Shown one piece after another: positions 53,822-56,800 of a stretch of DNA of 64,000 nt. Numbering within the stretch: position 1 is the stretch's first letter; every line of letters begins with the position of its first letter. Made by a program: the position numbers. The DNA is taken from assembly GCF_055900595.2 (NCBI RefSeq), contig NZ_CM148325.1; one strand, given 5' to 3'.

Positions 53822-56800
53822 TCAGGGGGGTTGATATTCCGGATCGTGCCGTGTTTGCCCACGGCTCCCCCTGGAGAGCTGCAGACCTGTTTATTTAACT
53901 CGCACAGCGCCGGGGCCTGTCAGCAAACAGGGAGCATAACCGTCGTGCCATTAAACGCCAGACGGGAGATCATTATTATTTTATTAATACAGATCCGTTG
54001 CATTCCGGTCTTTACCGCAGTTTAAAAGAAAAGAGAATAGGGACTTAGGCAGTAGAGCAGTCATTGGACAGACCACACTACCCCAAACTAGCAGGGGAGT
54101 TTTGATAAAATTTTGATAACCGTTAGCATGCTAACAAAAAAACAACGGGCGTGTTATACGCCCGTTTCAATATTTAACACATGTAGTGATTACATATTCT
54201 TGATGATCGCGTCACCAAACTCTGAACATTTCAGCAGTTTAGCGCCTTCCATCAGACGCTCGAAGTCATAGGTTACGGTCTTCGCGTTAATCGCGCCTTC
54301 CATACCTTTAACAATCAGATCTGCGGCTTCAGTCCAGCCCATATGGCGTAACATCATCTCAGCGGAGAGGATGATAGAGCCTGGGTTAACTTTGTCCTGA
54401 CCAGCATACTTCGGCGCAGTACCGTGGGTGGCTTCAAACAGCGCGCATTCGTCACCGATGTTTGCGCCTGGGGCGATACCGATACCGCCAACCTGCGCTG
54501 CCAGAGCATCAGAAATGTAGTCACCGTTGAGGTTCATACAGGCGATAACGTCGTATTCAGCCGGACGCAGCAGGATCTGTTGCAGGAATGCGTCAGCAAT
54601 CACGTCTTTAATAACGATCTCTTTGCCGGTGTTCGGGTTTTTGACTTTCAGCCACGGGCCGCCGTCGATCAGTTCACCGCCAAACTCTTCACGCGCCAGC
54701 TGGTAACCCCAGTCTTTAAACGCGCCTTCGGTGAACTTCATGATGTTACCTTTGTGCACCAGGGTCACAGAGTCACGGTCGTTAGCAATTGCGTATTCGA
54801 TCGCGGCACGAACCAGACGTTTGGTGCCCTCTTCAGAACACGGCTTAATACCGATACCGCAATGTTCCGGGAAGCGAATTTTCTTCACACCCATCTCTTC
54901 ACGCAGGAATTTAATCACTTTCTCAGCGTCGGCAGAGTCAGCTTTCCATTCGATACCCGCATAAATATCTTCCGAGTTTTCACGGAAGATAACCATATCG
55001 GTCAGTTCAGGATGTTTAACCGGGCTTGGGGTGCCCTGATAGTAACGTACCGGACGCAGGCAGATGTAGAGATCCAGTTCCTGGCGCAGAGCTACGTTGA
55101 GAGAACGAATACCGCCGCCAACCGGAGTGGTCAGAGGGCCTTTAATGGCAACGCGATATTCACGAATCAGATCAAGGGTTTCAGCAGGCAGCCAGACGTC
55201 CTGACCATAAACCTGTGTGGATTTTTCACCGGTGTAAATTTCCATCCAGGAGATTTTACGCTCGCCTTTATAGGCTTTCTCGACTGCAGCGTCGACCACT
55301 TTCAGCATGGCTGGGGTTACATCTACACCGATTCCATCACCTTCAATGTAAGGGATAATCGGATTTTCAGGAACGTTGAGTTTGCCGTTTTGCAGGGTGA
55401 TCTTCTTGCCTTGTGCCGGAACAACTACTTTACTTTCCATTCACCTCTCCTTCGAGCGCTACTGGTTTGCTCGTCTGCCACCACGTTGCATATGCGTTTG
55501 CGTCCTGCGATACGGATGCGTTAGAGCAATTTTTTGTTAATGATTTGTAATTGGCTTGTCAATACTACCCTATTGTTTGCCGTCATGAAAGATGCGCGTT
55601 ATTAGGCTATAATGCGGCAATTCATAATCTCTGAAAATACCATGCAAAAAACTTCTTTTAGACCAAAGACAGTATTTTACCAGCCTTCAAATAAAATATT
55701 AAATATCAATTATTTACACCAGATTTTAAGCAATAACAAAACCACCAGAGATAACTAACAGGGTGCTATTTGGTCAAAATTTGACATTACTCGATTCAGC
55801 GACTAACTCACTTTGAGCACTATTGGGAAAATTATCAAAAGTCATGGTTGAAGCGACAAGCAACGAGTAAATTATGGCATCCACCCTTTTTGAGGTTCAC
55901 ATGAAACGCTTTGCACTGATAGCTGTGACACTCGTTGCCTTTACTGGTTCTGCTGCAACCGAAGAAATCAACTTCAAGTAACAGAAACACCATATAACAA
56001 TGGAGTGTTGAAAAATGGATACTACCGAAGAACGCAATGGAACATATTTCTACAGAGGACACCCGAACCTGTCCAAAATAGAACTACTCAACGTCATATT
56101 CCTTGAAGAATTCTGTAAGGAATTGGGGATTGATTCGGTATCAGGTGCAGCAATCTTATCTGGTCAACCGTGGCTGGGTACAAGAGCGAAGCCGCAAGGG
56201 GCAACCCTGGGAACAAGTGTTGTCTCAAAGTATGCGCGTATACTGATGAGAGATGCACGCATGCCTTTTGGTATTTCTGTTCATACACCAGTGGGTGTAA
56301 GGATGCAGAAATCTAATAAGCTTGCTGCAATTATCGCTCGTTGGGTCCCGTGGATTGGTTGGGCTTCACTGTCGATGAGTCTTTACAGGGTTTCGACTCG
56401 TACCCAGGAAAAATACAATCTGATTGCCAAACCTCAAGACCGTATTAAGTGGACTTCCTTCTAATGGCGACAACAATCACAGACGAAGTTTTAGCACTGT
56501 TCCGTGATGAGATTCCAGGTTATCAGGATGACCACGGGAAGGAAATTCCGTTAGAACTGGACTCTGATTTGTTCGACTATCCACGAGATGATTTAGAGGA
56601 CGCTATACGGAAATACAAAGAGAGGTTTGGGATTAACCTGGATAATCTGGACTGGTCTTTTTACCTTCCGTGGGAGTCTGCACCATTGCTTCAACGATGG
56701 TTCAAACTCAAGCGGGAAGAGGTAGAAACAACACGTTTACCGTTAACTGTACGGATGTTTGCAGAATCAGCAGAAGCGGGAAAATGGCTGTATCAGTAGA

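Follow-up and report, generated by a model that had tools for sequence, protein, structure and literature searches.

The window, a stretch of 64,000 nucleotides of Escherichia coli contig NZ_CM148325.1 (assembly GCF_055900595.2), contains a cassette of two overlapping genes on the plus strand. Gene 1, the predicted toxin gene, runs from an ATG at 56015 to a TAA ending at 56464 and encodes a protein of 149 residues and 16.8 kDa with a pI of 10.0. Gene 2, which encodes the predicted immunity protein of 111 residues and pI 4.49, occupies positions 56464–56799 (ATG to TAG, with an alternative GTG start at 56449), the A of its ATG being the last base of the gene 1 TAA (TCTAATGG). The GC content of the two genes is 45.4%, that of icd 50.6% and that of the window 47.4%. 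A sequence-only reading of the locus had described a basic 149-residue protein and an acidic partner of about 111 residues, arranged for translational coupling by a TAATG overlap in a cassette of about 45% GC, and all of this was borne out. The stop/start overlap is kept in 49 of 50 pairs.

Neither protein had been recognised in that reading, and both could be placed in existing families, the names of which do not assign a function. Gene 1 (56015–56464) encodes a stand-alone STM2901/DUF8209 domain; it matches NCBIfam NF045926 with 156 bits at a cutoff of 110 (residues 8–142 on profile positions 1–140), Pfam PF26636 (DUF8209) is precomputed on all of its close homologues, and RefSeq names the product ‘STM2901 family protein’. 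A match to KELAA in Pfam-A was dismissed as spurious. The gene 2 product, ‘DUF1493 family protein’ in RefSeq, matches PF07377 (DUF1493) with an E-value of 1.4e-29, residues 4–110 falling on model positions 3–107 of 108. The possibility that the two genes are fragments of one larger decayed gene, which the sequence-only reading had allowed for, is excluded, as both are full-length family members in about 50 species. PHROGs contains both families, its matches to gene 1 being of unknown function, and literature searches for DUF1493, DUF8209, PF07377, PF26636 and STM2901 returned no functional study; DUF8209 did not appear in any of the papers searched.

Comparison of gene 1 with other genera gave dN/dS values of 0.05–0.10, which shows that purifying selection has acted on the toxin at the between-genus level. 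Between the two Escherichia copies lacking hcp only 2 synonymous and 5 non-synonymous substitutions were counted, too few to judge relaxed constraint. T67, S68, S71 and R109 are invariant in the family and form part of an invariant polar constellation (K59, T67-S68, S71, R75, R109, Y134-N135). No match to PDB sequences was obtained with the single protein or with a 31-member profile, and the predicted fold had no match among known folds.

The gene 2 protein is hydrophilic, with neither signal peptide nor transmembrane segment, and had no match to a DNA-binding domain. Its model is a four-helix bundle resembling acyl carrier protein (ACP), predicted with a pLDDT of about 90. In the family the serine of the ‘DSD’ motif, the would-be phosphopantetheine site, is replaced by F, Y, T, D, W and others. 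The hhalign comparison of the gene 2 profile with AcpP was insignificant (1.3% probability) and all profile matches to ACPs were sub-threshold; the link to ACP therefore rests on the predicted structure, and the resemblance would be one of fold only.

The cassette had been placed in the spacer between icd and rluE, which measures 171 bp in K-12. Comparison with K-12 revealed instead that it lies on an island which splits the 5′ end of the K-12-type rluE, interrupting the annotated ORF after codon 17. The DNA absent from K-12 extends from 55663 to 58418 and consists of the island itself (≈ 1.5 kb, 42.6% GC) and an insertion sequence within it; an IS-free version of the same island is present in two loci, L002 and L019. 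The first 17 codons of the K-12-type rluE (MRQFIISENTMQKTSFR) are stranded at 55612–55662 on the plus strand, where they open an ORF of 48 residues (55612–55758) running into island DNA. The island is flanked by an 11-bp direct repeat, CTTCTTTTAGA, the left copy at 55652–55662 and the right copy at 58419–58429, within the new 5′ end of rluE (both on the plus strand); these are the only two matches in the window, where 0.03 would be expected by chance. According to the RefSeq annotation and comparison with K-12 RluE, the present rluE (58394–59032, plus strand) has a replaced N-terminus, its 5′ end having been remodelled by the island.

A promoter-like site (ATGAAA-17-TATAAT, 10 of 12 consensus matches) is found on the plus strand at 55585–55613, upstream of the K-12-type rluE start and collinear with the K-12 rluE upstream region, in a region where the count of such sites is not above chance. 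This old rluE site now points into the island and may drive transcription of the cassette. Since the cassette lies downstream of it and in the rluE 5′ end, cassette and rluE are probably co-transcribed.

The intact IS noted beside the cassette was confirmed as an IS3-family element of 1258 bp (56912–58169, plus strand), with orfA and orfB, a programmed frameshift and terminal inverted repeats. It is bounded by a 4-bp AAAC target-site duplication (56908–56911 and 58170–58173), strain R32_14_1F provides the precise empty site, and only 7 complete genomes carry the element at this position. The IS separates the cassette from rluE and was inserted secondarily.

A signal-peptide-like ORF of 26 codons, also part of the sequence-only reading, does exist upstream of gene 1 (55901–55981, plus strand) and found no support as a gene. 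It has no RefSeq annotation, no family match and no similarity to hcp, and in the syntenic locus of Escherichia sp. E1V33, the closest relative (96% identical), indels shift its frame after about codon 14. We rejected it on this ground; it is probably not a gene and may be a decayed remnant.

Of the 5426 complete genomes of E. coli, 374 (7%) carry the cassette. The two families also occur in Salmonella (next to SPI-1), Citrobacter, Enterobacter, Klebsiella, Cronobacter, Serratia and Pantoea, in chromosomal neighbourhoods that differ in every genus and have no biosynthetic genes linked to them. A species survey was based on one genome per species and yielded 49 loci, a sample biased to close relatives because N-terminal peptide patterns served as query. 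DUF1493 lies directly downstream of the gene 1 homologue in 44 of these loci. A full-length hcp is located 12–16 nt upstream in 26 and a truncated one directly upstream in 3, giving 29 of 49 loci with hcp or a remnant directly upstream, a result with which independent look-ups concur; eight loci have hcp elsewhere within 6 kb. Remnants of the hcp 3′ end are retained in Cronobacter and in one Winslowiella locus.

The linkage to hcp seen in the relatives is absent from the window copy. Neither hcp nor an hcp remnant was found upstream of gene 1 by tblastn with two cognate Hcp proteins or by blastn against the upstream regions of relatives, and homology to the relatives starts only at the gene 1 start codon. 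Membership among Hcp cargos, as suggested by gene order, is therefore claimed for the family and not for this copy. In NZ_CP098223.1, a genome with an identical locus, two sites were examined: at aspV only a pseudogene fragment of ImpA/TssA was found, and metV is devoid of type VI secretion system (T6SS) genes. With no intact T6SS at either site, delivery of the toxin in this E. coli host is doubtful.

The components of the hcp-linked loci evolve at different rates. Mean pairwise identity is 0.83 for Hcp, 0.65 for the toxin and 0.58 for the immunity protein, and toxin and immunity identities are correlated (r = 0.91). In seven locus pairs the Hcp proteins are at least 95% identical, with toxins at 53–56% and immunity proteins at 31–41%. 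Toxin and immunity protein thus co-diverge, faster than Hcp, and cassettes are swapped behind near-identical Hcp.

When 1.84 billion representative proteins were searched with a profile of the toxin domain, there were 404 matches. Many are proteins of 200–790 residues which carry the domain at the extreme C-terminus; in eight out of ten such proteins the toxin domain is preceded by the RHS repeat-associated core, TIGR03696 scoring above cutoff, and others have lipoprotein-like or different N-termini. Glycine-rich segments precede the Rhs-fused toxin domain. In distant metagenome loci, probably of Bacteroidota, the gene bearing DUF8209 directly precedes DUF1493 in three of four cases. The toxin-immunity pairing hence outlasts a change of delivery system. 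Recurrence at C-termini, a downstream immunity gene and joint diversification, which are the marks of polymorphic toxins, were all found.

These observations make it likely, in our view, that the cassette encodes an effector and its immunity protein and belongs to the polymorphic-toxin type. Of the two options in the sequence-only reading, a toxin-antitoxin or a toxin-immunity pair, it is the latter that is supported by Rhs C-terminal recurrence, DUF1493 pairing, hcp linkage and co-divergence, the classical type II toxin-antitoxin being less well supported. In the mechanism we propose, gene 1 would supply a small basic toxin domain and gene 2 its cognate cytoplasmic immunity protein, whose translation would be coupled to that of gene 1; most likely this protein binds the toxin directly, in a 1:1 complex, and so neutralises it. 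The ancestral enterobacterial layout would have been an orphan hcp followed by the pair. Cargo of the Hcp ring lumen is limited to roughly <20–25 kDa, and at 16.8 kDa the toxin is within this size; judging from gene order, it would travel as Hcp-lumen cargo and be fired by the T6SS into neighbouring bacteria. Rhs proteins, of which the same domain is the C-terminal tip, would take over delivery in other phyla. A soluble, acidic immunity protein without export signal and a toxin with an invariant polar constellation and no convincing transmembrane segment point to a cytoplasmic target, on which the toxin would act enzymatically or by tight-binding inhibition, not by forming a pore. The E. coli copy may be stranded, retained as protection against attackers or through self-addiction and not for active delivery as a weapon.

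The readings diverge on the mode of action. The toxin may still be the effector of an effector-immunity pair and yet insert into membranes and depolarise them, in the manner of Ssp6 or Tse4, which we regard as unlikely. The models show a long C-terminal helix (residues 103–137) that holds the most hydrophobic stretch, LAAIIARWVPWIGWASLSM; database entries, UniProt among them, name homologues ‘membrane protein’ or ‘phage membrane protein’; and the glycine-rich segments preceding the Rhs-fused versions would fit as well. The highest 19-residue Kyte-Doolittle mean, however, is 1.24, below the usual threshold of 1.6, and the helix carries the invariant R109 and an aspartate conserved in most family members, while the invariant T-S-x-x-S motif together with the arginine looks, from its conservation, like a binding or catalytic site. 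The partner also argues against membrane insertion, since the immunity protein is predicted to be soluble and cytoplasmic. With other effectors that target membranes, the immunity protein is typically found in the membrane or the periplasm. Ssp6-like pore formers, too, occur with orphan hcp in Enterobacteriaceae, but an outer-membrane location is reported for Sip6 (PMC6889166). An effector with a cytoplasmic target, as preferred above, could also act on lipid metabolism: DUF1493 might be a substrate mimic, the toxin recognising AcpP or an ACP-dependent lipid step and the immunity protein occupying that site as a decoy. This model-based proposal is a long shot, and the same is true of its details, in which K59, T67-S68, S71, R75 and R109 would form the basic, conserved site of the toxin and the immunity protein would have evolved from, or converged on, a serine-less ACP fold. 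The ACP-like fold, the acidic surface, the non-conserved serine and a basic toxin without fold match are compatible with it. That DUF1493 is instead a dedicated acyl or peptidyl carrier protein, working with a small membrane-associated protein in a lipid or secondary-metabolite step outside any conflict, has hardly any credibility. Its predicted carrier-protein fold, and the label ‘acyl carrier protein’ given to homologues by some sources, would suit such a role; the unconserved DSD serine, the AcpP comparison and the ever-changing neighbourhoods, free of biosynthetic genes, would not, and neither Rhs fusions nor hcp linkage have a place in it.

The other question is whether the toxin is exported at all. 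In a self-contained toxin-antitoxin, abortive-infection or addiction module it would never leave the cell and, freed upon phage infection or loss of the element, would arrest its own host. Mobile copies bear on this. Homologues are carried by 153 plasmid records, many of which are megaplasmids or mis-assigned chromosomes, one of them with hcp adjacent. A conjugative IncFII plasmid of Pantoea carries the pair on its own, with no hcp, and in the P2-like Erwinia phage EtG an hcp-less pair is located in an accessory-gene slot between sheath and tail-fibre-assembly genes. A further ‘phage’ record, vB_EcoM-689R6 (100% match), was discarded as phage carriage because it is a prophage call overrunning into the icd, cassette and rluE DNA of the host. 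The hcp-less plasmid and phage copies fit addiction or defence roles equally well, and the translational coupling, the presence of both families in PHROGs and the E. coli copy, without hcp and with no intact T6SS at the two sites in the identical-locus genome, are likewise consistent with a module that acts at home. Such a module nevertheless leaves unexplained the hcp linkage in 29 of 49 species and the presence of the domain at Rhs C-termini, a hallmark of exported toxins. Neither protein matched PADLOC-DB 2.0 at E-values up to 1, so that no defence model was hit, and unlike in typical type II systems the toxin gene comes first and the ACP-like partner has no DNA-binding domain. On balance we hold a module of this kind to be quite improbable.

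The effector-immunity module resembles several known systems. In colicin E nuclease-Im pairs a basic toxin domain is followed directly downstream by a small, very acidic four-helix protein; the combination of a basic toxin with an acidic four-helix partner recurs here, and the likeness would be one of mechanism only. In Tse2-Tsi2 of the Pseudomonas aeruginosa H1-T6SS, a small effector that depends on Hcp acts on a cytoplasmic target, and its immunity protein is acidic and cytoplasmic. The present pair shares with this system a toxin of <20 kDa, a gene for a soluble acidic immunity protein directly downstream, the putative cytoplasmic action and, in relatives, the Hcp linkage, but no sequence or fold relationship was detected, Hcp dependence is here suggested by gene order, and hcp is missing beside the E. 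coli copy. Gene 2 shares with acyl carrier proteins the predicted four-helix carrier fold and differs from them in the unconserved phosphopantetheine serine, in an extra, nearly invariant C-terminal helix (LTVxMFAESAxAGKWLY) and in its genomic role as a putative immunity gene.

Ssp6-Sip6 of Serratia and Enterobacteriaceae comprises a T6SS cargo effector, a cation-selective pore former, and Sip6, reported to lie at the outer membrane (PMC6889166). Like the putative effectors described here it is a family of small T6SS cargo effectors found mainly in Enterobacterales, at variable genomic locations, sometimes beside an ‘orphan’ hcp and with the immunity gene directly downstream (PMC6889166), whereas here the immunity protein is predicted to be soluble and ACP-like and the toxin has no clear transmembrane segment. 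There is also a correspondence with the Rhs C-terminal toxin and RhsI immunity modules of polymorphic toxin systems (Zhang et al., 2012, PMC3482391). In other bacteria the present toxin domain follows the RHS core and is itself followed by DUF1493. In both, toxin and immunity protein are hypervariable and the delivery part is conserved, and arrays with extra immunity-like ORFs occur. They differ in that the domain in E. coli and other Enterobacterales is a free-standing 149-residue protein without fusion.

If correct, this assignment gives a role to two DUF families: DUF8209/STM2901 and DUF1493 would constitute an effector-immunity pair that accompanies an orphan Hcp throughout the Enterobacterales and, in other phyla, is found at the tips of Rhs proteins. 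With a toxin of unmatched fold and an ACP-like immunity protein, the pair would offer tractable access to an antibacterial mechanism that is possibly new. Should the decoy proposal hold true, T6SS and Rhs effectors would gain a new class of antibacterial target, and carrier-protein mimicry would be a new mechanism of immunity. In this E. coli lineage the module lacks an adjacent delivery gene and has reshaped the start of rluE; immunity or addiction is probably what maintains it. This copy would then be one more example of effector-immunity islets that decay and disperse.

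The two overlapping genes described in the sequence-only reading, a basic protein followed by an acidic one, are real: in seven complete E. coli genomes whose locus is identical, RefSeq names the products ‘STM2901 family protein’ (gene 1) and ‘DUF1493 family protein’ (gene 2). Gene 1 (56015–56464, plus strand) encodes 149 residues (16.8 kDa, pI 10.0) and gene 2 (56464–56799, plus strand) 111 residues (pI 4.49); the A of the gene 2 ATG is that of the gene 1 TAA. The two genes, together termed the cassette, are flanked by icd (54190–55440, minus strand) and rluE (58394–59032, plus strand) and have 45.4% GC, close to the 45% first given, versus 47.4% over the window. 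Gene 1 matched NCBIfam NF045926, the counterpart of Pfam PF26636 (DUF8209), with 156 bits where 110 are required, and gene 2 matched Pfam PF07377 (DUF1493; E 1.4e-29); by these profile matches both proteins belong to existing, uncharacterised families. A 26-codon ‘signal-peptide-like’ ORF (55901–55981), previously listed with them, is not regarded as a gene: its frame is not kept in Escherichia sp. E1V33 and it has no family match.

The decisive evidence on the nature of the pair is comparative. In Citrobacter, Winslowiella and ‘Enterobacteriaceae bacterium 89’ it lies 12–13 nt downstream of the gene for a 160-residue T6SS Hcp (PF05638), in a different chromosomal neighbourhood each time, and in Cronobacter and one Winslowiella strain just the last 28–48 codons of hcp are kept. 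Scanning a single genome of each species gave 49 loci, at which hcp and DUF1493 were scored by tblastn; as N-terminal peptide patterns seeded the scan, it covers the nearer members of the family. Among these, a full-length hcp ended 12–16 nt before the predicted toxin gene at 26 of the 49 loci and a truncated one at three; at eight, hcp lay elsewhere within 6 kb, and at 12 none was found by tblastn. The toxin gene was followed by DUF1493 at 44 loci. The start MDTTEExNGTYFY is almost invariant in the sampled free-standing enterobacterial homologues, an invariance partly built in by seeding the locus survey with this motif. In Rhs-fused versions and in some stand-alone homologues, P0183 and P0184 among them, unrelated sequence takes its place ahead of the Y-x-Y-x-G motif; this start might be an element for Hcp recognition.

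Among 1.84 billion representative proteins, a profile search picked up 404 relatives, many of them 200–790 residues long with the DUF8209 domain at the extreme C-terminus. Just upstream of the domain, eight of ten tested carried the RHS repeat-associated core TIGR03696 (44–87 bits, cutoff 32.5), and two also had YD repeats. Free-standing in some genomes and an Rhs tip in others, DUF8209 bears the signature of a polymorphic toxin domain. DUF1493 directly follows the DUF8209-bearing gene in three of four distinct metagenomic loci, which are probably from Bacteroidota, with LRR/DUF6443 giant proteins nearby. On such distant contigs (one at 386–8349) the pair adjoins two tandem tyrosine-recombinase genes; after it come a row of small ORFs lacking annotation and a further, weak DUF1493, a layout like that of an array of reserve toxin and immunity cassettes.

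The two proteins diverge together (r=0.91 between toxin and immunity pairwise identities, 48 non-identical pairs), the immunity protein faster. Over 27 hcp-linked loci mean identity fell from 0.83 (Hcp) to 0.65 (toxin) and 0.58 (immunity protein), and in seven locus pairs Hcp was at least 95% identical with toxins at 53–56% and immunity proteins at 31–41%, which indicates that cassettes are swapped behind a constant hcp. Between genera, the dN/dS of the toxin gene was 0.05–0.10, pointing to purifying selection; the two hcp-less Escherichia copies compared differ by too few substitutions to judge constraint on the toxin. An ATG overlapping the toxin stop was present in 41 of 50 pairs, with a 7–8-nt overlap in eight more. 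Hcp linkage, Rhs fusions, cross-phylum pairing with DUF1493 and co-divergence thus support the toxin-immunity half of the original proposal, and we consider it likely, from these relatives, that the cassette is an effector-immunity pair.

A role in toxin-antitoxin or abortive infection would be compatible with the plasmid and phage contexts in which the pair occurs. A conjugative Pantoea plasmid of the IncFII type carries it by itself, and in the temperate P2-like Erwinia phage EtG (NC_047833.1, region positions 4001–4761) an oppositely oriented DUF8209-like/DUF1493 cassette (32% identity to gene 1) occupies an accessory slot between sheath and tail-fibre-assembly genes. However, PADLOC returned no match for the cassette proteins, gene 2 encodes no DNA-binding domain, and such a role leaves the hcp linkage and Rhs fusions unexplained. 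The same two features count against a metabolic ‘carrier protein’ function, which is very unlikely. The toxin might instead depolarise membranes, a rival that is retained in view of the long amphipathic C-terminal helix in its model and the ‘membrane protein’ labels on database homologues; the highest 19-residue Kyte-Doolittle window of gene 1 is 1.24, under the usual transmembrane threshold, and the same analysis found no hydrophobic segment in gene 2.

Modelled with AlphaFold from 14 close homologues, gene 1 first gave a structure of low quality (pLDDT 56). With a paired alignment of 24 toxin-linker-immunity rows from the same loci and 30 diverse toxin-only rows, the fused model reached a mean pLDDT of 76.8 (immunity half about 90), the toxin being confident at residues 10–40 and 80–145 and disordered at 41–70. 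The toxin half had no match in the PDB and none in AFDB50 outside its own family. Among 54 diverse sequences no variation is seen at T67, S68, S71 and R109; G50 and P112 are 98% conserved, and Y11, Y13, D/E31, K59, R75, G115, Y134 and N135 at least 85% conserved. From conserved residues, hydropathy and models we infer, with most confidence, that the immunity protein would be cytoplasmic and neutralise the toxin by binding; with somewhat less, that the toxin would consequently act in the target-cell cytoplasm; and with least, that it would not form a pore but work through a polar active site, as an enzyme or a tight-binding inhibitor. The ACP-like immunity protein leaves room for the speculation that the toxin targets ACP-dependent processes and its partner acts as a decoy.

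The cassette had been placed in the icd-rluE spacer, which measures 171 bp in K-12. Alignment with K-12 instead puts the extra DNA (55663–58418), an island, within the annotated rluE frame after codon 17. The stranded 17 codons (MRQFIISENTMQKTSFR, 55612–55662) open a 48-residue ORF (55612–55758), and the rluE N-terminus and upstream region differ from K-12 (58394–58470) owing to the insertion. The island is bracketed by an 11-bp direct repeat, CTTCTTTTAGA, with no further copy in the window. Immediately right of the repeat, a stretch of roughly 30 nt is far more diverged from K-12 than the remaining rluE, which suggests that a foreign rluE 5' segment arrived with the island. A promoter-like site preceding K-12 rluE (55585–55613) lies just upstream of the island, so the cassette may be transcribed from the old rluE promoter, jointly with rluE in IS-free strains.

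The intact IS noted beside the cassette was recovered downstream of it as an IS3-family element (56912–58169, 1258 bp) with inverted ends and an AAAC target duplication. Absent from the island in strain R32_14_1F and in Escherichia sp. E1V33, it is a separate, later insertion. The IS occupies the rluE site in only 7 of 5426 complete genomes, and its transposase (WP_152895938.1) recurs in a second copy in NZ_CP098223.1 (1012703–1013880), a genome with the identical locus; together these suggest recent activity. With the element immediately in front of rluE in this strain, expression of rluE-nudJ may rely on read-through or on promoters within the IS. Immediately downstream of icd, at the e14 prophage site of K-12, is a 458-residue ORF (52436–53812, minus strand; ‘hypothetical protein’ in RefSeq) with an apparent internal duplication by eye, an adjoining transposase pseudogene and weak PHROG matches to unknown-function families only.

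The 821-bp cassette occurs in 374 of 5426 complete E. coli genomes, with identity of at least 99% in 372, at 377 chromosomal places and one plasmid place; rluE adjoins it at every locus inspected in detail, and in a few genomes one of its genes is broken by an IS. The pattern fits a single acquisition and subsequent vertical descent in some of the lineages. ON470584.1 (‘Escherichia phage vB_EcoM-689R6, partial genome’) matches gene 1 at 100%; it continues beyond an e14-like integrase into host genes (icd, the cassette, rluE, nudJ, mnmA and hflD), and the match is therefore host DNA, not phage cargo. In Salmonella Senftenberg (NZ_LN868944.1, region positions 3126–4782) the STM2901-like copy, of the kind that named the family, directly follows invH at the SPI-1 edge with DUF1493 and without hcp, and about 1.2 kb further along is a toxin-antitoxin pair of DUF1778/GNAT type; although deposited as a 728-kb ‘plasmid’, the record includes SPI-1 and is probably chromosomal.

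The kind itself is known: polymorphic toxins of the Rhs type and T6SS cargo toxins, each with an immunity gene downstream. Close analogues are Tse2-Tsi2, the Rhs-CT/RhsI modules and the Ssp6-Sip6 family, whose members, like the DUF8209/DUF1493 relatives, can accompany orphan hcp genes in Enterobacteriaceae (PMC6889166). No paper giving DUF8209, STM2901 or DUF1493 a function was found in literature outside subscription-only sources; the cassette is an experimentally uncharacterised case whose one unusual feature is the predicted ACP-like immunity protein. Upstream of gene 1 neither hcp nor a remnant was found in the window, which is ordinary core chromosome containing no T6SS genes. Of two sites inspected in NZ_CP098223.1, aspV holds only a truncated ImpA/TssA pseudogene (region positions 31598–32344) and an ISAs1 fragment, and metV no T6SS. 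Active delivery of this toxin would need an Hcp encoded elsewhere and is doubtful. On our reading the window copy is a stranded effector-immunity islet, in which gene 2 could still shield the cell from attackers armed with the cognate toxin, and addiction may keep the pair in place.
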